Of a stretch of DNA of 64,000 nt, positions 48,818 through 64,000 are shown piece by piece. The stretch is from Candidatus Thorarchaeota archaeon SMTZ1-45 (GTDB lineage Archaea > Asgardarchaeota > Thorarchaeia > Thorarchaeales > Thorarchaeaceae). The position numbers were made by a program, and so were the translations under genes. The DNA lies in the NCBI GenBank assembly GCA_001563335.1, contig LRSL01000086.1:15087-79086 (forward strand). Reading direction: 5' to 3'. The notes below the pieces were generated by a model. It saw nothing but the letters and a program-made list of their open reading frames with translations, ran no database searches and was not told the origin of the DNA. How positions within the stretch are numbered: position 1 is the stretch's first letter; each line of letters starts with the position of its first letter.

Positions 48818-48836
48818 AGAATGAAGGTGAAAAATA

Positions 48837-49070: not shown

Positions 49071-49091
49071 TATTTAGAGGACTCAATAGTT

Positions 49092-49631
49092 ATGGGAAAA
49101 AGACCAGGACACTGCTATCGAGATTGTGACAGGCCACCCTACACTCGGAAAAGGTACATCTATAGAAGACCTACAAATAAGATTACTAGCTTTGATATGG
49201 GCAACCCATCAGGTGATTTCAAGGCAAAATTATCTTTGATTGGTCTTGAGAGATGCCAAATACGACATCAAGCCCTTGAAGCGGCTCGTATTGCATCAAA
49301 TCGGCTAATGATGAGGAATGTTGGCAGACAGAATTATCACCTACGAGTTCGTGTAAAGCCGTTTCATTTCTTGAGAGAGAACAAAATGATTTCAGGTGCT
49401 GGAGCAGATCGAATCCAAGATGGAATGCGTTTAGCGTTTGGGAAAGTCATTGGTATTGCAGCTAGAATCAAACCGAAGCAACCAATAATTTCAATCAGAT
49501 GTGACAACAAACACATCAAGCAAGCGCAGCAAGCTCTGAAAAGAGCTGCACCCAAGCTCCCGACCCCATGCAAGATTATTTTTGACAAGATTGATTCCAA
49601 ATTAAAACAGAGCATGGGATATGGATTTTAG
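49092..49631 (+). CDS. rpl10e: 50S ribosomal protein uL16 (L10e)
   Basis: ALEAARI, LRENKM...GADRIQDGMRLAFGK, ALKRA..KLP. Confidence 0.95.
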   Translation: MGKRPGHCYRDCDRPPYTRKRYIYRRPTNKITSFDMGNPSGDFKAKLSLIGLERCQIRHQALEAARIASNRLMMRNVGRQNYHLRVRVKPFHFLRENKMISGAGADRIQDGMRLAFGKVIGIAARIKPKQPIISIRCDNKHIKQAQQALKRAAPKLPTPCKIIFDKIDSKLKQSMGYGF

Positions 49632-49832
49632 GGGTCTGGGTTTATAGGCCTGTGTTTCTTTCGAGAAGATATGATATGAAGTATAGAAGATCTTTATGGT
49701 TTGTTCGATTAATTGCAGGCAACTCTAAGGGAGAAAATATAGTCATTTTCTCAATCCTCTTCCTAGGAGGATAATCTATCAAATCTTGAATCTAGCTGAG
49801 TATTTGACACGAGTGTCCTGAGTGCATCTCTG

Positions 49833-50819
49833 TCAATTTTTAACTACATGGACAATTCCATTAAGATGAATTAACTTAGCATGATTCCTACGTTCCAAGA
49901 TTCTAAGAAGGTCATGGCTCTCAGCTAAAGCTAAGAGAAGCGAATTAGAATCATAATCACCATAGATGATTCTTGAGATATCATAGACTGTTTGCGGGGT
50001 GTCTGTTAGTGAGTCAGAAGTCTTCTGGAGTTTGTCGTCATATTCAGTCCGTAGTACTTGAATTCTAGATTTGATGTCAAGAATTGGTTCTCTGTGGCCA
50101 GGTAGTGCAATATAGCTGTTTCTGGAAGCGATTCGATTCAAAGAATCGAGGTAGGTGATTATGCCTATTTTTTCTGACCTTTCGAATGATATGCTTGGGT
50201 TTGAACTGATATCTCCTAGAATGAAATCTCCACTAAAGATAACTTGTTTTTCGTCGCATACATAACATGTCGACCCAGACGAGTGTCCGGGCACCCAGAC
50301 TGCAGAAATATCACCAATACCGGTTTTAAAAGTAGCACCATCATTGAAACTGATAGCTGTTGGAACAGACTCTACAAGTGATTTGAAATACTCAATGAGA
50401 CCTTTTGGTGGCAGTATCGGGCGTTCAGTCTGTGGAACTCCAGAGGATGTAATTAGATCCGTGTAGAACTCCATGTAGAGTTCTGCATACCTATCATAGT
50501 TTACTACTGCTGTGGCGTCCTTCTGATGAATCCATACCTTTGTAGGATTGTCATGGGCATGTGCTCGTTCTCTAACAAATTGCGCAGCCAATCCAATGTG
50601 ATCAATATGACCATGAGTCAGGAGAATCTGCTCAATGTCTGACATAGAATATGACCTTTCTTGGAGCTCTTTCTGGATTATTTCTAAACTCTTGGTAGTC
50701 TTTGGACCTGTATCAATCAGAGTGAGTGGAGAGCTTTCTATAAGGTAACAATTAACACTACCAACAGGAAATGGAGTCGGCACCTCGATTCTAGATACTC
50801 CATCGATTAGATTCTTCAT
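49833..50819 (-). CDS. MBL-fold metallo-hydrolase
   Basis: THGHIDHIG, PGHS, SGD, PGH. Confidence 0.9.
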   Translation of the reverse strand: MKNLIDGVSRIEVPTPFPVGSVNCYLIESSPLTLIDTGPKTTKSLEIIQKELQERSYSMSDIEQILLTHGHIDHIGLAAQFVRERAHAHDNPTKVWIHQKDATAVVNYDRYAELYMEFYTDLITSSGVPQTERPILPPKGLIEYFKSLVESVPTAISFNDGATFKTGIGDISAVWVPGHSSGSTCYVCDEKQVIFSGDFILGDISSNPSISFERSEKIGIITYLDSLNRIASRNSYIALPGHREPILDIKSRIQVLRTEYDDKLQKTSDSLTDTPQTVYDISRIIYGDYDSNSLLLALAESHDLLRILERRNHAKLIHLNGIVHVVKN

Positions 50820-50929
50820 GAGTGATTAGACCAATTGAGGTATTGCCTATATTGTCAATATAAAGAAGGTCATCCAAACAAAAAGTCGTTTCAAAATAAA
50901 TGGACATCTAGATTGTGCCATATTCAGTA

Positions 50930-51001
50930 ATGAAAAGGGTGCTCAACAATATCAAGGCAGGGTTGCTTGACGCTTTCTCAACGTTTAAGACTGTCAGATG
51001 A
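50930..51001 (+). repeat. Interspersed repeat copy (5' half conserved)
   Basis: ATGAAAAGGGTGCTCAACAATATCAAG matches the family consensus. Confidence 0.6.
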
Positions 51002-51022
51002 AGCTTGAGTGTGAATTGAAAA

Positions 51023-51832
51023 ATGAGTATTAACAGTTCAAAATTTGACAAAATCAGGAATATGTTAAATGGAAAGAGAGTTCTTGTGGCATTCAGTGGA
51101 GGTGTGGATAGTACTGTGCTTGCGCACATAGCAAAAGAGACTGCTGTTGACACGAGACTGCTGACCATCGATAGCATTACATTTCCTCGGTCAGAATTGA
51201 ATGCGGCTGTAAGTATAGCAGCAGAGCTAGGTATTGAACTACAAATCATCCAAGTTGATGAACTCTCGAACAAAGATTTGGTCAGGAATCCTGTTGACAG
51301 ATGTTATCATTGTAAGAAAGAGTTGTCTTCTGTCTGGTTGAAAGCTGCAGAAGACATAGGCATGGATTTAGTTGTTGAAGGGACCAATGCTAGCGAGATG
51401 GATGGACATCGTCCTGGTGTAAAAGCGCTTGAGGAATCTGGAGTGATGTCACCATTTAGAGATGCAGGCGTCACAAAAGATGAAATTCGAACTTATGCTA
51501 GAGAGGTGGGACTCTCAGTTGCTGACAGACCTTCTATGGCTTGTCTCTCAAGTAGATTTCCATATGGCACTGAAATTACTGAAGATCGCGTGAGGATAAT
51601 AGATATAGTGGAGAGAGAAATCAAAGAAACCTTTGGTATTGAATGCGTTCGTGCAAGATTTCATGGTGATCTGGTTAGAGTTGAGGTAGGGAGAGAAGAG
51701 AGAAAGAAGTTACTTGATGAAAGCAAACTTGATGAATTACATGAACTAGCGAAAAAGGCAGGGTTCAAGTATGTCACTCTTGATGCTTTTGGATATAGAA
51801 CTGGTGCCATGAATGAAACTCTTGAGTCCTAA
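51023..51832 (+). CDS. larE: ATP-dependent sacrificial sulfur transferase LarE
   Basis: AFSGGVDS, RCYHCK, RPG, ACLSSRFPYG, YVTLD..GYRTG. Confidence 0.92.
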   Translation: MSINSSKFDKIRNMLNGKRVLVAFSGGVDSTVLAHIAKETAVDTRLLTIDSITFPRSELNAAVSIAAELGIELQIIQVDELSNKDLVRNPVDRCYHCKKELSSVWLKAAEDIGMDLVVEGTNASEMDGHRPGVKALEESGVMSPFRDAGVTKDEIRTYAREVGLSVADRPSMACLSSRFPYGTEITEDRVRIIDIVEREIKETFGIECVRARFHGDLVRVEVGREERKKLLDESKLDELHELAKKAGFKYVTLDAFGYRTGAMNETLES

Positions 51833-51965
51833 TGAGTTTTCAACTGTTTCATATAGTCTAAGTGAAAGAGTCTACGAATTTATCCTTCACCAAGACCTTT
51901 ATTAATTATAGTTAAGATAATTATAGGAAGATGCGTTTACACGTAATGAAAATAGGTGATGGGAC

Positions 51966-52367
51966 TTGACTGAAAACCTGAAGATATCTGAAACCATCCA
52001 AGCAAAGCCAGAGGACATTTACAATGCTTGGTTAGATGGCGAGAAGCATAGTGAGATGACTGGGAGCAAAGCAATAGTGGAACTGAAAGTCAATGGAATG
52101 TTTACTGCATGGGATGGATATATTGAAGGGAAAACAATTGAAATGAGCCCCCATCAAAGAATTGTACAGAAATGGCGTACAACTGATTTTCCGTCTGACA
52201 GTCCCGACTCGAAACTTGAAATCATTTTGAAAAGGGTGGAAAAAGGAACAAGAATAACTTTGGTCCATTCAGAAATTCCCGAGGGCCAGGCTGATGAATA
52301 TAGAAAAGGTTGGCAGGAATTCTATTTCGACCCAATGAAAAGATATTTCGAAATAAAATCAGATTGA
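51966..52367 (+). CDS. SRPBCC/Aha1-like domain protein
   Basis: IYNAWLD, FTAWDGYIEG, RIVQKWR, GWQEFYFDPM. Confidence 0.9.
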   Translation: MTENLKISETIQAKPEDIYNAWLDGEKHSEMTGSKAIVELKVNGMFTAWDGYIEGKTIEMSPHQRIVQKWRTTDFPSDSPDSKLEIILKRVEKGTRITLVHSEIPEGQADEYRKGWQEFYFDPMKRYFEIKSD

Positions 52368-52542
52368 AAGCCTGGTATTTGCGTTGACTTGCCGTTATTA
52401 ATACAGAATTTTTCATCAGTCTAAGACTTTGTTTTGGAAGTGACCAGGGTCTATACCAGCGAGTGTAGAGAGAATGAATCTTGTCAAGGGTCGTGACAAT
52501 AATAGAAGTAACCTATCTAACTCCATTTCTTTTTGATTGTCA

Positions 52543-53355
52543 CTATTCATCATCTATCGACTCCAATTCCTCTGCTTTTTTGATAGCAGTATCAGCGAGA
52601 ATGAAAGCAAAGGGAGCAGTGAAGATTGAAACCATTAACAATGCGACACTTATACCTGATAACCAAGGTATCTCCCCAGATGCAACTAGGATTAGGAATA
52701 TACCTAGAGTAGACACTGAAACTACAGCAAATACTGAGAACGCTAAGAAATTCCCTCTATTTGGGGATCGCATGAGAAACCAGCTGTCGGAGATGAGAAG
52801 GAGAACAGAGAGCCCAAGATTGTATTTCCGTGCAATCTTTACCAAATTGTTCGCTGAACTCGCTGTTAACATCAAAGTGAGTATGAAGACGGTTATTGTC
52901 AAGACGGAAATAAATTGATTTTGTCCAAGCGTGAGTAATATAAAAATGAAACTGAAAAGCACAAGCATAATTCCAAAACCAAATCCAACCTGCATTTTGA
53001 ACAGATGTATCTCCTCTTTGGGTGTCATAGTCATGGCGGCAGACAGGACACCATATCGATCCACTTGACGCTCCTCTCTGACTTGATCGAGTAGAATCAA
53101 TGCCTTCTTGCCAAGGGCGGTTATCCTGTACTCACCATTGACAGTTTCTATCAGACCTACTTCTGCGAGCTCTTTGAGATGATAGTTGAACGTACCACTC
53201 TCAAGAGATGGGTCAAGACCCAAGACATGCATTAGTTGTGTATAAGAGGCACTACCTCTTTTTGAAATGAGCTGAATGATCTCTCTTCTAGTGGAATTCG
53301 AGAGTGCCTTTAACACTCCTTCGTGATATTCTCTTGATGACTTCAATAGTATCAC
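52543..53355 (-). CDS. ArsR-type HTH fused to a membrane domain (start uncertain)
   Basis: LKALSNSTRREII...FNYHLKEL...YRITALG followed by about 4 TMs. Confidence 0.8.
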   Translation of the reverse strand: MILLKSSREYHEGVLKALSNSTRREIIQLISKRGSASYTQLMHVLGLDPSLESGTFNYHLKELAEVGLIETVNGEYRITALGKKALILLDQVREERQVDRYGVLSAAMTMTPKEEIHLFKMQVGFGFGIMLVLFSFIFILLTLGQNQFISVLTITVFILTLMLTASSANNLVKIARKYNLGLSVLLLISDSWFLMRSPNRGNFLAFSVFAVVSVSTLGIFLILVASGEIPWLSGISVALLMVSIFTAPFAFILADTAIKKAEELESIDDE

Positions 53356-53461
53356 GTAGTGTTTTGTTTCGAACTTATTTAAGCCATTTTCACGAAATTT
53401 TTCGACAATATCTCTGTCAGTTTGTTGAATAATTTCGACATGTTTTATGATGTTTTTTAAA

Positions 53462-53522
53462 ATGACAAGGCTGCTCAACAGTGTGATTTTGTTAGGTTTC
53501 CCATGTAAATGATCCTACTGCC
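53462..53522 (+). repeat. Degenerate interspersed repeat copy
   Basis: ATGACAAGGCTGCTCAACAGTGT...GTTTCCC...CCTACT. Confidence 0.5.
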
Positions 53523-53545
53523 TTTTTCTTCATATCAATCTGATG

Positions 53546-54022
53546 TTAAATCTCCTTCTCCATCCAGATATTAAAACCCCATGGGTTTGGAATTGAGCTG
53601 GTCTGTGTATATCCTCGATTCTTGTAGAATCTGATTGCCCATGTAGCATTACAGTCCGTTACCAGTCGTATTTTCTTCAACCCCATATCTCTTGCTACAG
53701 CTTCTATATGAGAAACCAGAGCTGTACCGATTCCTTGTTTCTGATGATTTGGTAATACATAGACCCAGCGGATTCGACCAGTTTCTGCGGCTTCAACGCT
53801 CAATGCAGCTACTGCTATAATGCTTCCCTCATATCTGTGTATATAGAAAGTCATATTCTCTAAACTTTCTTCATACTCTTTGAGTGTGATAATTGGTTCT
53901 CTGAAATACTGCTTTGGAATTATTCGACCAAACGCATCACGATTGGATGAGTTGATGACATTGATTATTTCTTGAGCATCCTTCAGTTTCGATTTTTCAA
54001 TAAGAGATTCTGCATCTTTCAA
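53546..54022 (-). CDS. GNAT acetyltransferase
   Basis: YVLPNHQKQGIGTAL, AIRFYKNRGY. Confidence 0.88.
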   Translation of the reverse strand: MKDAESLIEKSKLKDAQEIINVINSSNRDAFGRIIPKQYFREPIITLKEYEESLENMTFYIHRYEGSIIAVAALSVEAAETGRIRWVYVLPNHQKQGIGTALVSHIEAVARDMGLKKIRLVTDCNATWAIRFYKNRGYTQTSSIPNPWGFNIWMEKEI

Positions 54023-54203
54023 ACTACATCATGTATCATTAATGTTAAGGAACAATATGAATAATGAGCACTATTCCTAGTTAGCAACCTGAAAGTGTGT
54101 TTGATAATCTAGGCTAAGCTAAGTTTCTTCATTATGACTGGAGCGCCTGGTTGACTAAAACCAGTTTCCAGTTCATTTAGTAGGCTGTCAGGCAGCTTAG
54201 TTC

Positions 54204-54872
54204 CTACTGAGAGAGATATTGATCCAAATTGCCTTTCCAATTCTTATGTTCGTGTTCTGGTAACTCCTGAACTCTGCATAACGGTCTGGCGATGATTTCT
54301 CGAATCTCGAAGGACTTGAAGAAATTCATTGTGTATGTTGGTCGAACACATAGAGCTGTATCGAGCCCCTTGAATGTACCAGCACATGAAATAACATCCT
54401 CACCCTCTCTAACTTCTCCAGAGTCCACTGCGATGATTGCTGCCTCAATAGCAATTTTAGTTCCTGCGCCAAACACCTCGAGTGTCTTATCAATAATCGC
54501 CTCAGGTGTAGGGGCGTTCCAGTCTAAGGATCTTGATGGTGGCGCGAAAGGTCTTGTGCTCTGAACTATCTTGACACCATTACTGATCAAAGTCTCTCGA
54601 GTCTCGGAGTATTCAGAACGACTAAGGCCTATTGGTATTCTTCCTTTTGGACCCCAGGTCGATGCAGGGTAGTGAGTAACAACAATCAAAACAATATCCA
54701 GATCCTTGAAGACATCAAGAACTCTCAAAGCGCTTCGGCCAGTTTCAGAAGCAACTATTACTTTGGTCAGCCCAAGCGCCTTGCAGCGGTTTCTTGCTGC
54801 TAACAATGTCTTTTCAGTATTTATCTCACCACAGTACTGGAAATATAATGTTGGGCGCTCTACATCACCCAT
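54204..54872 (-). CDS. Pyruvate-kinase C-terminal-like (PK_C) archaeal protein
   Basis: GEINTEKTL, VASETGRSA, GTKIAIE, GLDTA, IREII; start trimmed to the ATG after a GGAGA SD. Confidence 0.82.
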   Translation of the reverse strand: MGDVERPTLYFQYCGEINTEKTLLAARNRCKALGLTKVIVASETGRSALRVLDVFKDLDIVLIVVTHYPASTWGPKGRIPIGLSRSEYSETRETLISNGVKIVQSTRPFAPPSRSLDWNAPTPEAIIDKTLEVFGAGTKIAIEAAIIAVDSGEVREGEDVISCAGTFKGLDTALCVRPTYTMNFFKSFEIREIIARPLCRVQELPEHEHKNWKGNLDQYLSQ

Positions 54873-54980
54873 TCGTCTATCATCTCCCTGAAACGTATGG
54901 TGCCTTTTGCCTATGAAGATGTGGTCCTTAGAAACAGATATGATAGACAGTAGTTCCAATACTCTAACACACCGAGAGAA

Positions 54981-55481
54981 GTGAATAATATAGATGATTG
55001 CTGTATTATGATATATGTGATAATAATGACTTCAGAAAATCATTCGGAAAAGGAGTCGATTCTAAGACTTCGTGATAATTGGGAGGAGGCTGTCGCTTTT
55101 AGGGTTACAATTATAGATGATGGGAATTGCCGCGCAAATCACAAAGTTGGCCAAAAGTTTGAATTTAGCTGGAAATCTCCAGAGGGTATTTGCACAGAGA
55201 GCCTTGTTGGAATGTATCCCATATTACATTCCATGCGAGTATTTGGTGATATGAGGGAATTAGGTAGTTCTGAGCGTAATGTGAGGGTGTATAATTGCCC
55301 ATCTCGAGAGATCAAATTCAAGATCAAGGCCCTCTACAAATGTAACATATGCGGAAGTCAGTTACAGGTTAACCAAGATGGAGTTCAATCACTACAACTG
55401 CAGTGTACAAAGCCAGAATTTCCCCTACGTGTATGTGAAAGCTGTTATTCCAATTATAAAGAGAAGAGAATCGAGTGGTAG
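54981..55481 (+). CDS. TIGR04076-like Cys-rich protein with C-terminal Zn ribbon
   Basis: GNCRANHKVGQKF, GIC...MYP, NCP; CNIC...CESC. Confidence 0.72.
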   Translation: MNNIDDCCIMIYVIIMTSENHSEKESILRLRDNWEEAVAFRVTIIDDGNCRANHKVGQKFEFSWKSPEGICTESLVGMYPILHSMRVFGDMRELGSSERNVRVYNCPSREIKFKIKALYKCNICGSQLQVNQDGVQSLQLQCTKPEFPLRVCESCYSNYKEKRIEW

Positions 55482-55510
55482 TATCAATAGCAGTATGATT
55501 ATCTAAAAAC

Positions 55511-55578
55511 AAATAGGGCGTTCAAGAGAACACTACTAAGGCAAAGCCCCTGTTCTACAAATCCGATCAATCTTACAT
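55511..55578 (+). repeat. Degenerate interspersed repeat copy
   Basis: AGGGCGTTCAA...GGCAAAGCCCCTGTTC...TCAATCTTAC. Confidence 0.5.
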
Positions 55579-55629
55579 ATTGTAACTATTAGGTTAATCG
55601 TGGTATGTTTTTGTCGCACCACATATTTT

Positions 55630-55651
55630 ATAATGAATCTTGATTCATTAT
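55630..55651. promoter_or_regulatory. TGAAT-N4-ATTCA operator overlapping a TATA box
   Basis: ATAATGAATC-TT-GATTCATTAT, nearly identical to the site at 28393. Confidence 0.72.
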
Positions 55652-55699
55652 TTATTGCCGTTGTTGGGATTTCAATCTCAAAATAACATTTGAGAGAAG

Positions 55700-56557
55700 G
55701 TGTTCAAGACGTCAAAAGTTGTTTCTAAAGTAAGTGAGATGGTTCCGCCTGAAGTAAAAGAGAATATGAGAGATGTGAAACACAAAATCGTTGTACTCTC
55801 TGGCAAAGGTGGTGTAGGTAAGACCACAGTCGCAACTAACATGGCAATGTTATTTGCAAAGAGGGGACTCAAGTCTGGAATCCTCGATGTCGATATATAT
55901 GGACCAAATGTGCCTAAACTCTTAGGTCTCGAGGGTGAACACCCACACGCAGAACACCAAAAGCTATTGCCAGTTGAGGGACCACTGGGTCTCAAAGTGA
56001 TGAGTATGGGTTTTCTTCTTCGAAACAGTGATGATGCTATTGCTTGGAGAGGTCCATTAGTGGGAAAGGCTATTCAGCAATTCCTAAGTGACGTCAAATG
56101 GGGCGAGCTGGATGTGATCGTTGTTGACCTACCACCAGGCACAGGAGATGAGATTCTGAGCATTCTCCAGTCAATTCCTGAGATTGATGGTGTCATTATT
56201 GTATCAACTCCTCAAGAGGTCGCTGTATTGGATGCACGTCGAGCAATTCGACTTGTAGAGAAGATGGGAGTACGGATTCTTGGTATTATAGAGAACATGA
56301 GTGAGTTTGTATGTCCACACTGTGGTAAGTCGTACAATCTTTTTGGAGAAGGTGTGACTCAGAAAGCCGCCAACGAGTTTGGAATTAGGCACCTCGGCTC
56401 CTTACCACTAGATCCAAGAATCATCAGCCTCTCTGATAGGGGAACTCCTTTTGTCGTGGAAGACCCAGAATCCAAAGCTGCCAAAGCATTTGGAGTGGTC
56501 GTTGATCAGCTCAGTAAGACAATCGGCATCAAAAAGAATCAGGGTGAGAAAAAATGA
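55700..56557 (+). CDS. mrp: Mrp/NBP35 Fe-S carrier ATPase
   Basis: SGKGGVGKTT, DVDIYGP, WRGP, DLPPGTGD, ENMS...CPHCG. Confidence 0.95.
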   Translation: MFKTSKVVSKVSEMVPPEVKENMRDVKHKIVVLSGKGGVGKTTVATNMAMLFAKRGLKSGILDVDIYGPNVPKLLGLEGEHPHAEHQKLLPVEGPLGLKVMSMGFLLRNSDDAIAWRGPLVGKAIQQFLSDVKWGELDVIVVDLPPGTGDEILSILQSIPEIDGVIIVSTPQEVAVLDARRAIRLVEKMGVRILGIIENMSEFVCPHCGKSYNLFGEGVTQKAANEFGIRHLGSLPLDPRIISLSDRGTPFVVEDPESKAAKAFGVVVDQLSKTIGIKKNQGEKK

Positions 56558-56841
56558 GAGGTGGATATGGACGGTCAGGCAGTAGAGGTCGTTGGCCAGG
56601 AAATGGTCCATTCCAGGACCTACCACCATGGGAGAGACCTGGTTGGCTCTATGGACGTGGATCTTGTTGGTATATGGGATATCGTCCCGGTATTGACTAT
56701 ACAGTTCAGCCATTTTCAGTAGCCAACAATCTTCAATCTTTGCAGAGCCAAAAAAAACTGCTTGAAGAACAAATCAGAAGTCTTCAGGATAGACTAAAGA
56801 ATATTGAGAAACATCTGTCAGAGATTCAAAAACAGGAGTAG
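56554..56841 (+). CDS. DUF5320-like protein
   Basis: Gly/Arg-rich N-terminus, PPWERPGW, C-terminal coiled coil. Confidence 0.75.
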   Translation: MRGGYGRSGSRGRWPGNGPFQDLPPWERPGWLYGRGSCWYMGYRPGIDYTVQPFSVANNLQSLQSQKKLLEEQIRSLQDRLKNIEKHLSEIQKQE

Positions 56842-56888
56842 ATTATCTACAGGTGTGAATAACGAGTGGTACTAATGGTACCGAAACG

Positions 56889-57899
56889 ATGTGTATAACT
56901 ATGACATACACATATGGCCCAGTGGCATCATGGCGCTATGGACGCTCTTTGGGAATTGATGTAACGACTCGTCCAAAGAAGTGCACCTTCAACTGCATCT
57001 ATTGTCAATTGGGCTCAACGATAGAACATGTAGTTTCACCAGATGATATTCTAGATAAATTGCCATCTTCTCAGGATATCCTCAAAGAGGTCTATAGTGT
57101 TTTAAGACGGTTAGATTTGAACTCCATCGATGCTGTAACATTCTCTGGAGCAGGAGAACCCACTCTAAACTTGGAAATTGGTGTGTTAGCAGATGCAATA
57201 AAAAGAGAGATTCAGAGTTTACCTCTTGTACTTCTGACAAATGCATCACTTCTCCAAACCCCTGAGGTGAGAAAGAACCTTACTGGATTTGATATTATTT
57301 CTGCCAAGATGGATGCAGGTGATGATAGAACCTTCAGACTCATCAATCATCCAGCACGGGGTATTTTCACATTGGATGACATTATTGATGGCATTAAGAA
57401 ACTACATAAACAGATGTATGGCACTCTGGCTCTAGAGGTCATGCTTCTAAAAGGACCACAGGGATTGACGAATGCAGAAGGACAAGCTAGAGGAGCACTC
57501 ATTGAGAGGATTCTTGAGATCACACCTGATGTTGTACAGATCTACACTCCTTGGCGTCCCTCTGCAGTTGAGGGCATTCAACCACTCTCAGTCAACATTC
57601 TACACGAGTTTGGGCAGGAGCTTGGTGAGTATCTTGGCATGGATAAAATATGGGTTTATGGTTACCATGATGCCCGAAACAAACCCGTGAGATGGAAAAA
57701 TCATAATAAAATTGAGAATGAGATCATTGATCTACTCAGACGCAGACCATGCAGAATTTCGGATGTCATAGTTTCCATGGGAATAAAGACAGCACTCGCG
57801 AAACACATCCTAAACAGCCTTCTCAAAAGTGGAGAGGTATCGATACAGAAGATAGAGAATGAATCCTTCTACAGAATCGTTAATTATCCAGAGGTTTGA
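56889..57899 (+). CDS. Radical SAM protein with C-terminal HTH
   Basis: YGPVASWRYGRSLGID, CTFNCIYCQ, GAGEPTL. Confidence 0.9.
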   Translation: MCITMTYTYGPVASWRYGRSLGIDVTTRPKKCTFNCIYCQLGSTIEHVVSPDDILDKLPSSQDILKEVYSVLRRLDLNSIDAVTFSGAGEPTLNLEIGVLADAIKREIQSLPLVLLTNASLLQTPEVRKNLTGFDIISAKMDAGDDRTFRLINHPARGIFTLDDIIDGIKKLHKQMYGTLALEVMLLKGPQGLTNAEGQARGALIERILEITPDVVQIYTPWRPSAVEGIQPLSVNILHEFGQELGEYLGMDKIWVYGYHDARNKPVRWKNHNKIENEIIDLLRRRPCRISDVIVSMGIKTALAKHILNSLLKSGEVSIQKIENESFYRIVNYPEV

Positions 57900-57952
57900 A
57901 TAGAGGAATTCAACATTGTCATGAGTCCCTCTCAGAGGAATTGAAATGTAAA

Positions 57953-58023
57953 ATGAAAAGGGTGTCCAATACTGTAAGGAATGGAAGATTGCCTTACTCA
58001 TCCAACATTATCAACCTATACTT
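57953..58023 (+). repeat. Interspersed repeat copy
   Basis: ATGAAAAGGGTGTCCAATACTGTAAGGAATGGAAGATTGCCT...TCAACCTATACTT. Confidence 0.65.
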
Positions 58024-58139
58024 TTTGCCCATCATAGTAGCATCTAAGATAGACTACAAACCGTTTTTCTTGATGAGCTTTAATGAAGCACATTCATAAT
58101 GTGTTGTAATAATACAGATTGTTATGGTCATGTGAAACT

Positions 58140-58649
58140 TTACTTGGTAGATAGTTTTTCTAAATCTTCGAGAATGGCCTCAAGATCTTCTTCATGCTCA
58201 ACTTCATCTGCAAGAATCTCTAGAACCATCTTATGAGTGATTGGATCTTTTCCCTCAGTCATCTCGACCAATTTGTTATATACTACTATGGCACATTGTT
58301 CCCCCTTGATGTTCTGGACTAATAACGCACGAACCGATGGATCTGATGGCGTTTCATATCCACAGTTTGTTTCTTTATACCAATCCTCCGGTTTAATCAA
58401 AGGAGTTCCACCCAACTGAATCATTCTCTCTACCAGCATCCCAGCATGTCGAAGCTCATCACCAGCATGTTCCATTAGTTCTGCCTCTAAGAGACCTCTC
58501 ATTGGTCCGACAACTATCTGCGCTCCAATCCAATATTGATAATATGCCAACCATTCATCTGCAAATGCTTTATTGAGTAGCTTTAGTAGTTCATCGACAT
58601 CAAGTTTGGCTTTGACTATTTCCGTTCCTTTACTTCCCATTATGATCAC
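58140..58649 (-). CDS. DPS-like (DPSL) ferritin-family protein
   Basis: ADEWLAYYQYW, DELRHA, GEQCAI, DEVEHE. Confidence 0.9.
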   Translation of the reverse strand: MIIMGSKGTEIVKAKLDVDELLKLLNKAFADEWLAYYQYWIGAQIVVGPMRGLLEAELMEHAGDELRHAGMLVERMIQLGGTPLIKPEDWYKETNCGYETPSDPSVRALLVQNIKGEQCAIVVYNKLVEMTEGKDPITHKMVLEILADEVEHEEDLEAILEDLEKLSTK

Positions 58650-58791
58650 CCTGTATTATGAATTCGGAGCATGTTCAACTATGAGAAATTGAATCATGAT
58701 TCGCTTCATAACGTTGAGTCGTGGGTAATATTAGACTTTCGCTTTAGAATGGCAGAATTTCTATCCCCTGCGTGCAATGTTTACTACTATG

Positions 58792-58868
58792 TTGAAAGGG
58801 ATGTTCAATACTACCGAGAGAAGATTAGTTCCCTGATTACCTGACTTTCTCGTAAACCTGCACCTTTC
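58792..58868 (+). repeat. Interspersed repeat copy
   Basis: TGAAAGGGATGTTCAATAC...AGTTCCCTGATTACCTGAC. Confidence 0.6.
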
Positions 58869-58950
58869 TCTTTCTGAAGACAGAGCAAGCTGTATTGATT
58901 ATTTAAGATGATAGAAAACGCAAGAGGTGTTACTGAGGGGATATTGCTCA

Positions 58951-59454
58951 TTAATCATGATCATTTTCAAAACGATCATCAGCTTTGAATGAGTGGTCTT
59001 TTCTAATTGGGGACATTCCAAGCCAGCCTGATGTTGCTAGAGGTCTATTATCAAACTCTGGAACAAAGGGTTTGATATCAAGTAGTGGTGTTTCATCAAG
59101 CATGTCAACTCCTTTAATATATAGACGTGTTCCCTCAATGCTGACTAGTTTTACAATAGAAATTCCAATAGGATTGGGGCGTGATGGGGCTCTTATGGCA
59201 AATATGCCATGCGAGTCGGTATCAAGGTATGGTTTCATTTGCATCTTGGGGGCTTTAGCCTTATGAAACCAATACAGGAGAATGATGTGTGAAAACCCAT
59301 CCAGAGACTTGAGACCATCACGGAATTCTTCGAATACCTCAACATACCCGAGAGCATCAGACTTGCTCGATTGAATTGGAGTGGCTTTGCTCGATTTGAA
59401 AGGAGTTCTGATAGTTCCGATGGATTGTATCTTGAACTCTTGTGGTTTACTCAT
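58951..59454 (-). CDS. tsaA: tRNA m6t6A37 methyltransferase TsaA/TrmO family
   Basis: FSHIILLYWFH, GIFAIRAPSRPNPIG, DMLDETPLLDIKPF. Confidence 0.92.
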   Translation of the reverse strand: MSKPQEFKIQSIGTIRTPFKSSKATPIQSSKSDALGYVEVFEEFRDGLKSLDGFSHIILLYWFHKAKAPKMQMKPYLDTDSHGIFAIRAPSRPNPIGISIVKLVSIEGTRLYIKGVDMLDETPLLDIKPFVPEFDNRPLATSGWLGMSPIRKDHSFKADDRFENDHD

Positions 59455-59607
59455 GGTAGATTGAATAACTACATTATCAGATATCTGTTATTGGAGATAC
59501 TCACCGTTACAACTAAACTACTGGAACTACTCAAACAGGAAGCTAAGCAACTGGATTAAACATAACGTTAGTATTGACTTGTTCTCGTTTGTAAGTAATT
59601 TATCAAA

Positions 59608-59678
59608 ATGAAAAGTGTACTCAACAACGTCAGAAAGGGAAAGTTCCCTGTTCACTCGACCCCGTCAGCCTCTACTTC
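59608..59678 (+). repeat. Interspersed repeat, well-conserved copy
   Basis: ATGAAAAGTGTACTCAACAACGTCAGAAAGGGAAAGTTCCCTGTTCACTCGACCCCGTCAGCCTCTACTTC. Confidence 0.85.
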
Positions 59679-59703
59679 AAACATTGTATGAAGAATATGT
59701 AAA

Positions 59704-60537
59704 TTACGAGTTGTCAGAATCAACATCCCTATCGAAGGGATGCGAGCGAGCTAAAATACGTTCAAAATGTCTACGACTATCTTCTACTACTGAACTTGAG
59801 GTTTCAAGTGTAAAAAGCCCGAACTCTCCTGCAGGTGTGAATAGGCTAGTTATTGCTATATTATCATCAAGAAGTGCTCCATCTCGTATGAGTTCTGGCT
59901 CAAGCTCATCTATGGTCACGTAACGTACTGAGATTCCAGCCTCGCTCTGCTCTCTGATTGTATTGGTAAGTGGGAATTCATCTCTCAGAAAATCCTTGTC
60001 TTTTAAAATGAAGATTCGGATAATCTTTAGTCCCTTCCTAGCTGTTCTAAGATTAGTTTCCTGCCAGAGATGATGATCACCAGTTGACCATTTGTACGGA
60101 TCCATGACAATATCTGTAGCGAGAACAGTCTTCTGAACAGTGTCAAATATCTGTCCTGCTCTCACATAGGCCTCTTCGCGTGGAATACTGATTCGACCTC
60201 TCCTGAGATCCTTAATCATCTCTCCGAACTTAAGTAGTCCTCGTTGTGCTTCTTGAATGTGAAGTGGACTTCCGTTTCTCATAATAAGGTCATATTCAGC
60301 GACCACCTCTCTTAGAGGCTTATGCGTGGCACTGACCTCAGAGATTGATAGTGTGTCAGCGATGACTTTTGTTGAGTGTGAAAGCTGAATTTGTGTTTCT
60401 ATTGTCAGCGCAACTAGCTCAATTACCAATGCTACCAAAACGGAGGAGAGAACATCTGTGGTGGCTAACCAAACGACGAAGCTCGCAATAATGGCTATCA
60501 TGAGTCCCAATAGTTTCTCTGGAATTCGGATGCTCAT
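59704..60537 (-). CDS. Hypothetical protein with 2 N-terminal TMs and a soluble alpha/beta domain
   Basis: Two TMs, then ARKGLKIIRIFI...AGISVRYV...DGALLDD. Confidence 0.75.
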   Translation of the reverse strand: MSIRIPEKLLGLMIAIIASFVVWLATTDVLSSVLVALVIELVALTIETQIQLSHSTKVIADTLSISEVSATHKPLREVVAEYDLIMRNGSPLHIQEAQRGLLKFGEMIKDLRRGRISIPREEAYVRAGQIFDTVQKTVLATDIVMDPYKWSTGDHHLWQETNLRTARKGLKIIRIFILKDKDFLRDEFPLTNTIREQSEAGISVRYVTIDELEPELIRDGALLDDNIAITSLFTPAGEFGLFTLETSSSVVEDSRRHFERILARSHPFDRDVDSDNS

Positions 60538-60643
60538 TGTAAATCAACTCACTCTTTGACCCCTGATGATAATTAGATATGGGTTGGATTTGTGTCTACT
60601 TGTGGATAAATTCGATTCTAAATAGCAAATGCACAAAAACACA

Positions 60644-60714
60644 AGAAAAAAGGTGCTCAATAGTGTCAGAAGAGGAGAGTTCCCTGTTCACCCGACCCCG
60701 TCGGTTTCTGCCCT
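60644..60714 (+). repeat. Interspersed repeat, well-conserved copy
   Basis: AAAAAGGTGCTCAATAGTGTCAGAAGAGGAGAGTTCCCTGTTCACCCGACCCCGTCGGTTTCTGCC. Confidence 0.85.
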
Positions 60715-60745
60715 TACCAGTTTAGAACTGATAAAGCTCGACTTT

Positions 60746-61315
60746 TTAGGACGCATTACAAATCTTGTTAGCTAGTTCACGAACCTCGGCAACTAGTCTA
60801 GTATTCTTTTCGGCATCCCCTATGTCATTTGCAGTTCCATGAACAATCCCCAAAGTTTCCCCTTTCATATAGCGTATAAGATGTTTGATAGAATTTATCG
60901 CATGTTGAACTCCGGATTCTTTAACATTAGTATCTCCGTAAACAAAGAGAACAGCAAATCGTTTTCCATCTAACTTGTGACCGCCTTTAACATGCAATGC
61001 TACTAATCTGTCAATGAATAATTTCAGTTGACCAGAATAATTGAACCAGTATATTGGTGATGCAAAAATGATGGTGTCAGCTTCGATAATTTTCGGGTAA
61101 ATCTCATTCATATCATCGTCATCTTGAACGCATCTTAGAGGAAAACCTTCGTAGCACCAGAAACAACCTCGGCAGTGTTTAATGTTGAGTTCATGAAGAT
61201 GAAGAATTCTTGATTCCATCCCTTTCTTTTCTAGTATATCATTCATCTGGTTAATTAAGTAACGAGTATTGCCCTTTCTTCTTGCGCTACCGTTCAGAAT
61301 CAGAATTTTACTCAT
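60746..61315 (-). CDS. Iron-sulfur flavoprotein / flavodoxin family
   Basis: GSARRKGNT, CRGCFWC...C, ASPIYW, LKLFIDR. Confidence 0.92.
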   Translation of the reverse strand: MSKILILNGSARRKGNTRYLINQMNDILEKKGMESRILHLHELNIKHCRGCFWCYEGFPLRCVQDDDDMNEIYPKIIEADTIIFASPIYWFNYSGQLKLFIDRLVALHVKGGHKLDGKRFAVLFVYGDTNVKESGVQHAINSIKHLIRYMKGETLGIVHGTANDIGDAEKNTRLVAEVRELANKICNAS

Positions 61316-61374
61316 GATAAGACCAGGTTGATTGGTAAGTAATAAGCATGTAGTTCAACGAAAACGATGTAGAA

Positions 61375-61446
61375 GAGAAAGAGTGGATCAACAGGTTAGG
61401 AAGGGGATAGTTCCCTGTTCATCCCCACTCAATTAGCCTCTACTTC
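61375..61446 (+). repeat. Interspersed repeat copy
   Basis: GAAAGAGTGGATCAACAGGTTAGGAAGGGGATAGTTCCCTGTTCATCC...AGCCTCTACTTC. Confidence 0.8.
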
Positions 61447-61576
61447 TTAGAACAATGAATTAGGCGATTTTCAACCAAGTTTTGGTATGGGTACTTGAAA
61501 CTGCATCAAGCATAAGGTTAGTACTGTCTTAAGACAGTACTAGATAATCAGGAATAGAGAAGGAAAAAGATGCAAT

Positions 61577-61643
61577 ATAGAGAAGGTGCTCAATAATGCA
61601 ATATGCGTAATCCTCCAAATACCCTACAACCAACCTCTACTTC
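61577..61643 (+). repeat. Repeat copy with conserved ends and divergent centre
   Basis: GAAGGTGCTCAATAATG ... CAACCTCTACTTC. Confidence 0.7.
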
Positions 61644-61797
61644 TCACTACATGGGCGCCATAGCTTTTTCTCAGTCCAAACATCAAAGCTCAAGTGACTC
61701 GGGACCCTGTTGCTCAATGCATATCCAAAATCTAATGTGGGACAGAGGCATCTGATTGTGGTAAATGAGTAGATACACGCTCCAGTGAGGAATTAAT

Positions 61798-62766
61798 TTG
61801 AACTGGGAATCCTTACTGCACAAGAATCTCTTGCAATGGCTGTTAGATGGAGAGCCTTGGGTTATCTATCGGACTTTGACATGGCTACTAGATAAGCCGG
61901 AGAATGATGATTCAGTATTAGAAGCAAAAAGGATGGTTCCCAAGCATCCAATGATAGAAGGCATCTTCGCAGGCTTGAATGCGAACGGATACTGGGGGAA
62001 ACCGGAGGATATACATACCTGGTGGCCCAAGAAATTCACCACATTCTGGCTGCTACCAGTCCTCGCAGATTTCGGTCTAACGATAGATGATAAGAGAATC
62101 GCGAAAGCTTGTGAATATGTGTTCACTACACAGCTTCAATCTGGTGCTTTTGGATGGTCTCCACCAACAAAACCCGGAGAGTGTCATACTGCAATACTTG
62201 TCGAAGCAATGGCAAAGCTTGGTCTTTTGCATGACTCAAGAGTACAGAGTGCCTACAGATGGCTCGTCAAGAAACAGCGCCTAGATGGCGGATTCTGGTG
62301 CAAGAACACTGGTCTGATAGGGAAACCAAGAGAGAAAGAGCCAAGCTGTGCTTTTGCAACTATGTTCGTGCTTGGAGCAATGGCTCAGAATCCTAGGTTA
62401 AAAGAGAGTATAGCTGCGAAGAGGGGGATCAGGTTCCTGTTTAAATGCTGGAGAAATCGTGGGAAAATGAAATATGCTGGCCATGACAGTGAGATTGGAC
62501 ATGGTTGGGAGAAGTTGAAATATCCGTTTACAGAATATCGTATTCTGAAGTTCCTTGAAGTTCTGTCGCAGTTTAAGCATTCAAAGCAAGAGCTTCTTAG
62601 ATCTGGACTGGTTGACCTACTACTCAAGAAACGTGACAACGATGGACGGTTCACACCCGAGTCAATCCATAGAGCTTGGTCTGATTGGGACTTTGGACAG
62701 AAACAGAAACCGTCGAGATGGATTACTCTTTGCGCTTTGCGGATTATGAAGAGTGCAATTGAGTAG
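61798..62766 (+). CDS. Prenyltransferase/squalene-cyclase-repeat (alpha/alpha barrel) protein
   Basis: QLQSGAF, WLVKKQRLDGGFWC, KLKYPF, KPSRWIT. Confidence 0.8.
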   Translation: MNWESLLHKNLLQWLLDGEPWVIYRTLTWLLDKPENDDSVLEAKRMVPKHPMIEGIFAGLNANGYWGKPEDIHTWWPKKFTTFWLLPVLADFGLTIDDKRIAKACEYVFTTQLQSGAFGWSPPTKPGECHTAILVEAMAKLGLLHDSRVQSAYRWLVKKQRLDGGFWCKNTGLIGKPREKEPSCAFATMFVLGAMAQNPRLKESIAAKRGIRFLFKCWRNRGKMKYAGHDSEIGHGWEKLKYPFTEYRILKFLEVLSQFKHSKQELLRSGLVDLLLKKRDNDGRFTPESIHRAWSDWDFGQKQKPSRWITLCALRIMKSAIE

Positions 62767-62857
62767 AAAGATCTTTAATTGAATTCAAGTGTACAGCAAG
62801 TCAACATACTGTATTCTTTCACTATGGATATCCTATGTCATGTTTATATATTGCAAA

Positions 62858-62928
62858 AGAGAAAGGGTGCTCAACAGTGTCAGAAACGGGAAAGTTTCCT
62901 GTTCACCGCCCACGTCACCCTTTACTTC
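62858..62928 (+). repeat. Interspersed repeat, well-conserved copy with 8-bp terminal inverted repeat
   Basis: AAAGGGTGCTCAACAGTGTCAGAAACGGGAAAGTTTCCTGTTCACCGCCCACGTCACCCTTT; AAAGGGTG/CACCCTTT. Confidence 0.85.
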
Positions 62929-62948
62929 TCTTTACAATCAATCAATTC

Positions 62949-63170
62949 ATTTTTCCCACGCTTCTTTCATTATAAGATTTCTTTTCAGAAACTCCTTCAT
63001 CAAGTCTTCTGGAACTTTGCTCATTCTGCATGAGAAATTGGTACAGATTTTGCATGTACCTCCTCTGAGCATCTTGTCAAAGGAAACAGCTAACATAAAG
63101 AAAATTCATGCACGCGCATTATTAGCTCATACAGCAGAGGCACTATTTGTTTCTGTAATATTCTCATAAA
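62949..63170 (-). pseudogene. Decayed gene remnant
   Basis: Protein-like C-terminus CKICTNFSCRMSKVPEDLMKEFLKRNLIMKEAWEK preceded by in-frame stops. Confidence 0.4.
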
Positions 63171-63431
63171 TATACTACAAGAAGTTCAATTATTCTGGTC
63201 CGCTCATAACAGCAATATTGATAGTAACCACGGTAATCTTGCTTGACTTTTCCTGACCGCTACAATAATCCTTCAAGACTATGCTGTGTTCAACAATCCT
63301 GTTGGAACTTGGATCCCATTCGCCCTGATCTTCATAGCTACTATGATAGTTAGAATTTATTTGAATAGGAGTGTATAGTATCTCTAGTTTGGAGTGAGTT
63401 TCTTCGATTACACAGAGATGAATTTTATAAA

Positions 63432-63480
63432 ATGAAGAAAGTGTTAAAAATGTCAGAAAAGCTAATTCCTATTTCGCCCA
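63432..63480 (+). repeat. Degenerate repeat copy
   Basis: ATGAAGAAAGTGTTAAAAATGTCAGAAAAG...TTCCTATTTCGCCC. Confidence 0.55.
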
Positions 63481-63525
63481 ATTCTATAAGGTCCTAATAT
63501 TAGTAGTCATCGTGAGGTGATTGGG

Positions 63526-64000
63526 ATGAAAAGCTTTCTTATTTTTCCTGCTCCAGATGTCATAAACCTTAGATATTCTACTCCAACATTAAGTCCTCCA
63601 CTTGGTCTTCTCTATATCGCCTCTTCGTTACGCGAAGCTGGAGTCGAAGTCAGACTTGTTGACCAGTTGGGAGAAAAGATACCTGATGAAAAGATACTGA
63701 GGAGAGTAGAAAGATACTCTCCAGATGTAGTTGGTTTGTCATTGATGTCATGGCAGGCAAAAAAAGCTGCAAAACTGGCGGCTATGATTAAAGAGAAACT
63801 TCCTGACACTCATATAGTATTTGGAGGCGTGCATGCATCAATCAACGCCGAACGAATGATGAAAAAATACATCCAAATCGATTCAACTATTGAGGGAGAG
63901 GGCGAGCTATCTATGGTCGAGCTTTTCAAAGCTCTAGAACACGGGAATTCTATTCAAACAGTATCTGGTATCTATTACCGTGAGAACGGGAAAGTGAAGA
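63526..64000 (+). CDS. Partial B12-binding-domain radical SAM protein
   Basis: Not in the ORF track. GAGGTGA SD; PPLGLLYIASSL, PDVVGLS, IVFGGVHAS, GEGE; runs off the window end. Confidence 0.88.
   Translation, partial: MKSFLIFPAPDVINLRYSTPTLSPPLGLLYIASSLREAGVEVRLVDQLGEKIPDEKILRRVERYSPDVVGLSLMSWQAKKAAKLAAMIKEKLPDTHIVFGGVHASINAERMMKKYIQIDSTIEGEGELSMVELFKALEHGNSIQTVSGIYYRENGKVK

Follow-up and report, generated by a model that had tools for sequence, protein, structure and literature searches.

We analysed a stretch of 64,000 nt (the window) from Candidatus Thorarchaeota archaeon SMTZ1-45, in which a repeat of about 80 nt, always in the same orientation, divides the right-hand part into an array of small accessory-gene units, here called cassettes. 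The repeat matches the 3′ external spacer, or trailer, of the 16S rRNA gene. In relatives the array lies directly behind that gene, whole cassettes vary between close relatives, and the breakpoints of this variation fall inside the repeat. The array is probably, though far from certainly, a strain-variable additive island that has the 16S trailer as its anchor and owes its reshuffling mainly to homologous recombination or gene conversion between trailer copies. The window comprises positions 15087 to 79086 of contig C86 (LRSL01000086.1; 82,838 nt) of assembly G000 (GCA_001563335.1), which has 119 contigs and 3,544,182 nt and is 87.7% complete.

Correspondence of the repeat to the 16S rRNA trailer

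Complete 16S rRNA genes (Rfam SSU_rRNA_archaea) adjoined the array end in eight genomes of four genera, namely G017, G005, G030, G029, G012, G015, G025 and G062. The 3′ end of the gene always pointed to the array and the nearest repeat copy was 20-110 nt away; in G017, 26 nt lay between the last copy and the end of the gene. These eight arrays have the position of an island at the 3′ end of a stable-RNA gene. The original prediction, made from the letters of the window, had expected a recombinase gene past the array and outside the window; no recombinase was found at the array end, and in the eight relatives the 16S rRNA gene lies there instead. In long contigs one flank of the array carried a metallo-beta-lactamase-fold gene; the opposite flank, on the 16S side, held small 'open reading frames' (ORFs) and then an M1 peptidase with HEAT repeats, DUF7521, an MFS transporter and a class I aminoacyl-tRNA synthetase. 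The small conserved ORFs at the array end (clusters 19, 20 and 45, probably also 69) were rejected as genes: they are spurious frames in or beside the 16S gene on the opposite strand and match no Pfam family.

Copies of the opposite orientation near a 16S gene were found only directly upstream of it, in G005 and G029. When the upstream and downstream flanks of the 16S gene were cofolded, they formed an imperfect stem of about 60 bp at −86 to −129 kcal/mol in G005, G017 and G030, so that pairing of leader and trailer over tens of base pairs, as in a processing stem, was predicted in all three. In G029 the predicted intermolecular pairing was patchy. For the G005 duplex the energy model predicted a 3-nt bulge, a 6-bp helix and a 5-nt bulge. 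On the basis of the 16S adjacency, the inverted upstream copies and the cofold of leader with trailer, sequence comparison and predicted pairing identify the repeat, read on the minus strand of the window, as the strand that the 3′ trailer contributes to the pre-16S processing stem. Its partner in that stem, the leader strand, is the inverted copy upstream of 16S.

The minus strand of the window is the 16S sense strand. By extension from the relatives, the present genome should have its 16S gene immediately beyond the C86 terminus, reading towards the left into the array. In all four public runs the contigs leaving the C86 end entered another repeat copy, the first 24-62 letters of which were those of the last assembled copy. 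The loose end at that copy carries a trailer type which in G029 leads straight into the 16S gene. In G035, contig C2 stops 34 nt past its 16S gene and the array begins near the start of another contig.

Some further observations were made on repeats and RNA genes around these loci. Two inverted copies lie about 13 kb away on the 5′ side of the 16S gene in G012:C81, off the main array (L081 3900-3948 and 4443-4525, plus strand), and could be a second small array or the end of an inversion. A lone strong copy (E 2e-10) was found in a 178-kb contig of G029, G029:C1 (L041 9547-9626, minus strand), far from the 16S and array contigs. Matches to small-subunit (SSU) rRNA spanning 2.3-3.6 kb, as compared with the 1478 positions of the model, occurred in five Asgard genomes (G035:C2:589938-592348, G048:C1:448464-450889, G088:C5:332567-335232, G115:C71:619-4212 and G014:C73:13812-16104), so the 16S gene of several Asgard genomes may contain large insertions or introns. 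In the conserved flank past 16S, tRNA matches of 104-115 nt (L024 14849-14952 and 2366-2480; L022 8956-9059; L081 12306-12409) are presumably intron-containing tRNA genes.

Repeat copies in the assembly

A first nhmmer profile was made from four copies and then iterated over all 119 contigs. Nine copies were recovered from the whole assembly (E 1e-20 to 6e-11), every one on the plus strand of C86, and the rest of the 3.5-Mb assembly gave no further match below E = 1 in the iterated search. Six of the nine lie within the window (57950, 58793, 59604, 60643, 61374 and 62854) and three past its end, at window-equivalent positions 64970, 65727 and 66970 (C86 80056, 80813 and 82056). With these three copies the array reaches to less than 700 nt from the end of the contig, the terminus of which is at window-equivalent 67752.

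A later profile of 239 copies from 28 genomes was run with filters off on the window and, as a control, on 20 locally shuffled windows. It gave ten matches in the window between 50929 and 62931, with scores of 63.7 to 7.9 bits and all on the plus strand; the top score over the shuffles was 5.3 bits. A general repeat search of the window likewise returned families of co-oriented copies at 50.9-62.9 kb. The original prediction had described a unit of about 70 bp at some 12 positions, in one orientation, more degraded to the left and without a convincing copy in the first 50 kb. The unit measured about 80 nt. Eight of the positions are clear copies (50930, 53462, 57953, 58792, 59608, 60644, 61375 and 62858); those at 55511 (8.9 bits) and 61577 (7.9 bits) are marginal, yet both scored above all shuffles, so that 10 of the 12 outscored every shuffle. 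The copy at 63432 and a 'possible weak' one at 54090 were undetected with the 239-copy profile. The common orientation was borne out by all ten matches, the decay to the left holds within the window (15.0, 12.7 and 8.9 bits), and the best match in the first 50 kb, at 2.1 bits, was under the shuffle maximum.

Being short, non-coding and intergenic, the copies might be taken for a selfish repeat of the miniature inverted-repeat transposable element (MITE) or repetitive extragenic palindrome (REP) kind, or for a product of chance or assembly. This is barely credible, and the genome-wide scan, the family distribution and the shuffle controls led us to reject it. The significant copies are confined to one contig and one strand, with no dispersed pattern on both strands or random scatter and no copy outside the locus in 3.5 Mb. 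Their scores are far over those of the shuffles, and the chromosomal position is conserved in independent assemblies of 36 genomes, including a 243-kb contig.

Distribution in the family and beyond

A sequence-only covariance model of the repeat was used to search related genomes. It matched all 27 genomes of the genus and 35 of 36 genomes of the family, and none of 24 genomes from 17 other families of the phylum. Multiple matches occurred in the genera g1, g3, g4, g8, g9, g31 and g32. Four genera of the family (g2, g5, g6 and g7) had a single match only, which is probably the leader or trailer itself, and in g10 the model gave none or one (G036). A degenerate 37-nt pattern, searched in one genome per species (185,579 species), hit ten stretches, all from metagenome-assembled genomes (MAGs) named 'Candidatus Thorarchaeota' or 'Promethearchaeota', which bears out the Asgard origin presumed in the original prediction. 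The 48 contig stretches compared held 261 copies at E < 0.1, 258 of them co-oriented with the rest of their contig. The highest count in one contig stretch was 15 (G012:C81).

In 18 further genomes and three positive controls, the 20 kb downstream of each genome's 16S gene was searched with that genome's own trailer; the stretch was shorter in two, 3.4 kb in G084 and 15 kb in G028. All three controls were recovered. Co-oriented copies were found within the family in G076 (six) and in G082 of g10 (two), and in another Asgard family, f5, in G094 (one) and G162 (two). Thirteen of the 18 genomes had no copy in the searched stretch, and G104 gave one weak 47-nt match. The f5 copies lie 6.8 kb (G094, L099) and 2.3 and 5.0 kb (G162, L101) downstream of 16S, at 87-96% identity. 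The intervening DNA encodes a leucine-rich repeat protein of 1171 aa, HEPN/AbiV-type genes and unknowns, with no integrase.

The copies in G094, G162 and G082 include the last 14-57 nt or so of the 16S gene itself, which points to duplication of a contiguous DNA segment. Copies that carry the 16S 3′ end are the hallmark of DNA that inserts at the 3′ terminus of a stable-RNA gene and regenerates it. From the small versions in a second Asgard family it seems that conservation concerns the process and not the sequence.

In G082, 1 kb past a trailer copy, a match to Rfam PYLIS_3 (L105 3831-3930, minus strand, in an ORF at 3427-4938) scored 40.7 bits against a gathering threshold of 38. PYLIS_3 is the pyrrolysine insertion element of mttB.

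Cassette content, polarity and turnover

The 210 intervals between consecutive copies had a median length of 1157 nt, with quartiles at 759 and 2172 nt. ORFs of at least 60 aa were called in the relatives with a simple in-house caller; one ORF was found in 98 intervals, two in 46 and more in 63. The intervals fell into 161 homology clusters, so the content is very diverse. Like the sites of integrons, the repeats are co-oriented (258 of 261) and bound cassettes at distances of less than 4 kb. Where cassettes were shared across arrays (matches of at least 300 nt), 283 had the same polarity relative to the repeats and one was inverted. The ORFs themselves were of mixed orientation: among single-ORF intervals 55 ran with the direction of 16S and 43 against it, and with one representative per homology cluster the figures were 38 and 31.

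The arrays of G001 and G012 share cassettes that are 93-96% identical in a different order, G012 having one extra, and homology stops in the repeats. Whole cassettes therefore vary between close relatives, as in additive islands. The original prediction had proposed a gene-capture platform related to integrons. The first part agrees with the comparison of gene order, in which repeat-bounded accessory units appear, disappear and change order from one relative to another and the breaks fall within the repeat, and no stable synteny of the intervening genes was seen; the relationship to integrons did not hold.

The most recurrent cargo was a ParE/RelE-like toxin, present in 13 genomes and always on the 16S strand, followed by PIN-domain proteins. 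The array of the present genome holds a DUF3368/UPF0175 pair.

Location of the breakpoints

Breakpoints were placed by likelihood change-point analysis of the repeats flanking pairs of cassettes that were at least 84% identical and had non-homologous neighbours. A pooled per-position identity of flanking repeats over all pairs of at least 70% was too noisy for placing the crossover and was replaced by this analysis. In the left repeat (plus orientation) the part linked to the cassette began anywhere from position 0 to position 78 of 80 (21 pairs). The right repeat was mostly unlinked, its linked part stopping at position 16 or before in 13 of 17 pairs. This pattern indicates that a cassette tends to travel with its left copy, the one that follows the cassette when the 16S strand is read. 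As judged from these alignments, the crossover is spread over the repeat and not at one place.

Contigs of the four public runs provided population-level data. A contig of run X3 joins the copy at 62854 (L001 13958) to the copy at 66970 (L001 18073), so that 4114 nt with three cassettes are skipped. The junction falls in eight shared letters of the repeat core, and other X3 contigs span the skipped part. The X3 data are Logan contigs from a study other than the likely source, with 30 letters on the short side of the junction, and give one observation and no frequency. Other joints in these runs were recorded as well. A contig of run X1 joins L001 4866 to 9258 (window 53779 to 58171), skipping 4391 nt with neither end at a repeat, and loose ends recur in several runs at L001 8060/8095 and 10351/10384; these probably come from related strains or other organisms. 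A joint of run X2 leads from 16839 back to 10721 with five letters between, which may be a circle, a duplication or a hybrid repeat of another strain, and was not used as evidence.

Copies were also compared with the trailer of their own genome. In G017 they were 85-99% identical to the 16S-proximal trailer, in G030 90-94% (three of four copies) and in G062 79-97%, and this high identity persists 8-31 kb from 16S. More heterogeneous copies were found in G005 (68-82%) and in the present genome (53-85%, relative to the last assembled copy). The background identity between genomes, which is defined position by position and not as a mean, was about 0.3 at variable and about 0.9 at core positions. 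Copies within a genome share genome-specific insertions and substitutions. One copy in G017 is chimeric: it is of the resident type to about position 60 and then of a type known from G012 and G029. It would appear that copies are either made from the resident trailer or converted by it, and that foreign cassettes are occasionally imported.

The same resemblance bears on a function at the RNA level, in which transcribed copies would pair with the abundant leader or trailer RNA of 16S, or be cleaved in the course of rRNA processing. The copies would then terminate, process or couple the expression of cassettes to rRNA synthesis, and the boundaries would coincide with repeats since genes are kept with their regulatory element. 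The leader-pairing segments are preserved in the copies, which also track genome-specific trailer variants (CAGCAG in G030); each copy, read on the 16S sense strand, is followed by a T-rich tract; and distant copies in G017, G030 and G062 remain close to the functional trailer. We nevertheless hold this explanation to be improbable. With 55 genes in one direction and 43 in the other, the copies stand in no fixed relation to the transcript; they are decayed in the distal part of the present array; the variable segment (positions 24-33) is not the same in all copies of a genome, despite its single leader; no covariation was found; and the copies with 16S gene sequence in G094, G162 and G082 point to duplication of DNA.

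Search for recombinases and attC features

No match to tyrosine recombinases (PF00589), serine recombinases (PF00239) or Y1 HUH transposases (PF01797) was found in the present assembly; as this is 87.7% complete, the absence is unproven. Five TnpB-like matches lie on contigs other than C86. In the family, 16 of 41 genomes had PF00589 matches, none on an array contig, and the array-bearing genomes G001 and G035 (each 97% complete) had none at all. That 25 of 41 Thorarchaeaceae genomes, several of them 97-98% complete, lack a match to the tyrosine-recombinase family is in itself odd if an XerA-type dimer-resolution enzyme is expected. Of the 22 protein clusters that recur most often on the 48 array contigs, ten were scanned with Pfam directly and two (beta-lactamase-fold and LVIVD) through other members, and no recombinase was seen in those scanned. 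In the cargo clusters and array contigs scanned there was thus no integrase of the kind that inserted elements of additive islands carry.

The repeats did not resemble attC sites. An Rfam search of window positions 48000-64000 at E up to 1 gave nothing on the repeats, the only match being a chance one to Clostridium-PBP (32.6 bits against a gathering threshold of 94.4). RNAalifold on nine copies gave consensus energies of −0.7 and −2.2 kcal/mol for the two strands, with only seven and nine weak pairs. Single-strand DNA folds of six copies on both strands had z-scores between −0.95 and +0.29 in 10 of 12 cases; the remaining two, from one copy, had −2.4 and −2.6. Mutual information over 83 distinct copies from several genomes revealed no covariation, the top pairs not being Watson-Crick pairs. 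A GTTRRRY-like motif (GTTGAGC) is present on the minus strand without a proper RYYYAAC partner, in agreement with the original prediction that such a pair is missing.

The label of a canonical cluster of attC sites lacking integron-integrases (CALIN), with homogeneous attC sites as reported for Asgard MAGs, would be suggested by the co-oriented repeats less than 4 kb apart, the single-ORF intervals (98 of 210), the toxin-antitoxin cargo and the GTTGAGC motif, and CALINs are reported to be enriched in Asgard genomes (PMC9668308). By definition a CALIN is without IntI, so a missing IntI alone leaves the label possible. We consider it very improbable all the same. The likeness to integrons claimed at first fails on the folds, which are those of shuffles, on covariation, on the RYYYAAC partner, on ORF orientation, which is mixed instead of one-way, and on IntI, there being no tyrosine recombinase here or in 25 of 41 family genomes; and the repeat demonstrably corresponds to the 16S trailer.

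A site-specific recombinase of an undescribed kind has to be taken more seriously, although we think it unlikely. Such an enzyme, encoded elsewhere, would act on the core (around GCTCAAC and the GGGAAAGTTCCC near-palindrome) and handle cassettes as circles, which would make the array a true integron analogue with the 16S trailer as attachment site. What is conserved between genera is the 5′ half of the repeat (model positions 2-48), with information peaking at the core and the near-palindrome. The X3 junction lies within eight shared core letters, linkage in the right repeat is lost by position 16 in 13 of 17 pairs, polarity is strictly kept (283 against 1), and the repeats of the present genome look too divergent for efficient homologous recombination. 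Against such an enzyme stand the left-hand breakpoints, spread over positions 0 to 78, and the searches reported above: no tyrosine, serine or HUH recombinase match in this assembly, no recombinase in the recurrent clusters scanned (12 of the top 22), and no PF00589 in the near-complete, array-bearing G001 and G035. Moreover, conservation of the core can be explained otherwise, as the core also forms the base of the processing stem.

More generally, there is a small chance that Thorarchaeaceae, and on a small scale other Asgard lineages, possess a gene-capture platform of an undescribed kind, with the 3′ strand of the 16S processing stem as its attachment site. It would be served by an unrecognised core-reading recombinase or by a route coupled to rRNA processing. 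The latter would use the pairing of leader with trailer, the splicing endonuclease and a ligase. If either were true, an integron-like system tied to rDNA would have been invented independently in the closest archaeal relatives of eukaryotes.

Features of the window

The features of the array and its flank are as follows (window coordinates, strand, description).

49833-50819, minus: metallo-beta-lactamase-fold gene (Pfam Lactamase_B, E 1.2e-22); conserved flank at the 16S-distal end of the island
50929-50962, plus: degraded repeat, 5′ half only (15.0 bits, E 4.8e-4)
51023-51832, plus: cassette gene, PP-loop ATPase family (Pfam QueC/PP-loop)
51966-52367, plus: cassette gene, AHSA1/SRPBCC-type (Pfam AHSA1, E 2.1e-19)
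52543-53478, minus: cassette gene, winged-helix regulator (Pfam DUF7347/HTH_20)
53459-53484, plus: degraded repeat, core only (12.7 bits, E 0.0024)
53546-54022, minus: cassette gene, GNAT acetyltransferase (Pfam Acetyltransf_1, E 4.1e-19)
54204-54959, minus: cassette gene, PK_C-like domain protein (Pfam PK_C)
54981-55481, plus: cassette gene, 166 aa, no Pfam match
55507-55572, plus: marginal repeat (8.9 bits, E 0.039; above all 20 shuffles)
55700-57899, plus: three-gene operon of NUBPL/ParA-type ATPase, DUF5320 and radical SAM (Pfam)
57950-58027, plus: repeat (26.4 bits; genome-wide E 1.5e-13)
58140-58649, minus: cassette gene, ferritin-like (DPS-like; Pfam Ferritin, E 1.3e-27)
58793-58870, plus: repeat (29.1 bits)
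58951-59454, minus: cassette gene, TrmO/TsaA N-terminal domain (Pfam TrmO_N, E 8.9e-39)
59604-59678, plus: repeat, the best of the window (63.7 bits)
59704-60537, minus: cassette gene, DUF6879 protein (Pfam DUF6879)
60643-60712, plus: repeat (51.3 bits)
60746-61315, minus: cassette gene, NADPH-dependent FMN reductase/flavodoxin-like (Pfam FMN_red, E 4.9e-28)
61374-61448, plus: repeat (42.4 bits)
61574-61647, plus: marginal repeat closing an empty interval of about 125 nt (7.9 bits, E 0.081; above all 20 shuffles)
61798-62766, plus: cassette gene, prenyltransferase/squalene-cyclase-like alpha-alpha toroid (Pfam SQHop_cyclase_C/Prenyltrans)
62854-62931, plus: repeat, 5′ partner of the deletion junction of run X3 (57.0 bits)
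63146-63372, plus: frameshifted remnant of a gene of 121-125 aa (tblastn with G013 and G075 proteins: two frames, 67-74% identity)
63517-64000 and on to C86 80048, plus: cassette gene, B12-binding radical SAM enzyme (Pfam B12-binding and Radical_SAM on the full ORF)

Pfam agreed with the gene calls of the original prediction (ferritin-like, TrmO/TsaA, DUF6879, FMN reductase/flavodoxin-like and alpha-alpha toroid). The single operon predicted at 55.5-57.9 kb was recovered at 55.7-57.9 kb, and the predicted decayed gene is the frameshifted remnant. The B12-binding radical SAM ORF stops 8 nt short of the next repeat. The ferritin-like protein has a paralogue at window positions 41331-41747 (plus strand), about 17 kb upstream on the same contig.

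The left part of the array looks, by homology, like a set of old cassettes with decayed repeats, because homologues of several of its genes lie between or beside good repeats in G013 and G012. DNA homologous to the PP-loop ATPase cassette (76-77% identity) is found beside good repeats in G013 and inside the G005 array. The G013 homologue of the winged-helix regulator stops 14 nt short of a strong repeat, an 81%-identical homologue of the PK_C-like gene sits between two repeats in G012, and a 79%-identical homologue of the 166-aa gene sits between two repeats in G013, where homology stops at repeat position 24. The NUBPL/DUF5320/radical SAM genes recur in six to seven genomes, mostly at the array edge. 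Homologues of the metallo-beta-lactamase-fold gene mark the same array end in G001, G012 and G017, and the cluster is present in nine genomes.

Proposed mechanism

The organism has a single 16S rRNA gene, and the repeat is a paralogue of the 3′ external spacer of that gene. If the array is an additive island on the 16S trailer, the island would start directly behind 16S and end at the conserved metallo-beta-lactamase-fold gene (window 49.8-50.8 kb). Each unit would consist of one gene or small operon plus one trailer copy, and units would be added, deleted and re-ordered by recombination between trailer copies, with polarity kept. The engine may be general homologous recombination together with gene conversion (host RadA-type), including exchange with DNA of related cells; we prefer it to a dedicated recombinase because the breakpoints are spread, the copies resemble their own trailer, and no recombinase gene travels with the arrays. 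By analogy, the toxin-antitoxin cassettes (ParE/RelE-like, PIN and DUF3368/UPF0175) probably guard the array from loop-out deletion.

Several points weigh against this mechanism. The present assembly, 87.7% complete, contains no 16S gene, so that adjacency here is derived from the relatives and from the loose end at the last copy; a missing 16S gene does fit a contig breaking inside the repeated region. The copies of the present genome, at 53-85% identity to the last assembled one, are a poor substrate for homologous recombination, and no block longer than the core (about 15 nt) is common to them. Across genera, the 5′ core has been conserved beyond what would be expected of a mere scar, the sole population-level junction lies in the core, and the right-hand breakpoints cluster near it; all three would also fit a site-specific enzyme. 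Identity to the trailer was weakly and not significantly related to distance from 16S in six arrays (Spearman coefficients of −0.47 in G005, −0.49 in G000 and +0.11 in G017). Breakpoints may have been blurred by later gene conversion, the ORF caller used for the relatives is crude, and the mechanism does not account for the first attachment of a trailer copy to a new gene.

Comparison with known systems

Archaeal integrons, mostly CALINs, are enriched in Asgard MAGs according to Ghaly et al. (2022, PMC9668308). As in the sedentary chromosomal integrons and CALINs of that account, the Thorarchaeaceae arrays have co-oriented repeats, small diverse cassettes, toxin-antitoxin modules and variable order. 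They differ from them in having no IntI, no attC hairpin or R''/L''/L'/R' architecture, mixed ORF orientation, variable crossover points and a repeat derived from an rRNA spacer. Surveys of Asgard genomes based on attC may have included arrays of this kind or may have passed them over.

Together, the 16S-proximal copy and the inverted one upstream make up a long helix like the archaeal pre-16S processing stem with its bulge-helix-bulge (for example PMC7038931). That stem has one leader and one trailer, whereas here 5-15 extra trailer copies occur with genes between them. A canonical 3-4-3 bulge-helix-bulge was not confidently identified in the Thorarchaeota leader-trailer duplex.

SAR11 has a hypervariable island beside its rRNA genes. 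Like replacement-type hypervariable islands (PMC4033161), the present arrays have a conserved gene that anchors the homologous exchange of variable DNA; unlike them, the exchange here is cassette-wise through internal repeats and not by a double crossover in the flanks of a whole island.

The arrays also resemble the additive islands at stable-RNA genes of Actinomarinales (PMC7771536). There, too, expansion takes place beside a stable-RNA gene with strain-variable content, every inserted cassette is closed by a direct repeat taken from part of the RNA gene or its flank, and cassettes move within the island. Here the repeats are likewise copies of an RNA gene flank, at 85-99% identity in G017 and with the 16S 3′ end included in G094, G162 and G082. 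In contrast to those tRNA-linked islands, the target is the 16S 3′ trailer, there are up to 15 copies bounding mostly single-gene units, no integrase was found in or near the arrays, and the copies are homogenised towards their own trailer.

In the open-access literature searched we found no description of repeats or cassettes behind Asgard 16S genes. The arrays may explain why 16S genes are missing or at contig ends in Thorarchaeota MAGs, since assemblies may break at the repeated trailer; 16S was missing from five of eight sampled genomes of the genus. They also offer a natural, conserved landing site for future Asgard genetic tools. A whole Asgard family keeps a hot spot for the acquisition and shuffling of accessory genes behind its only 16S gene, with copies of the rRNA spacer as joints. 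What is new is the 16S trailer as target, the large scale and family-wide conservation, the mostly single-gene units and the lack of an integrase. As an integrase-free counterpart of integrons and tRNA-linked islands, the system makes it possible to test whether repeats and general recombination suffice for gene capture.

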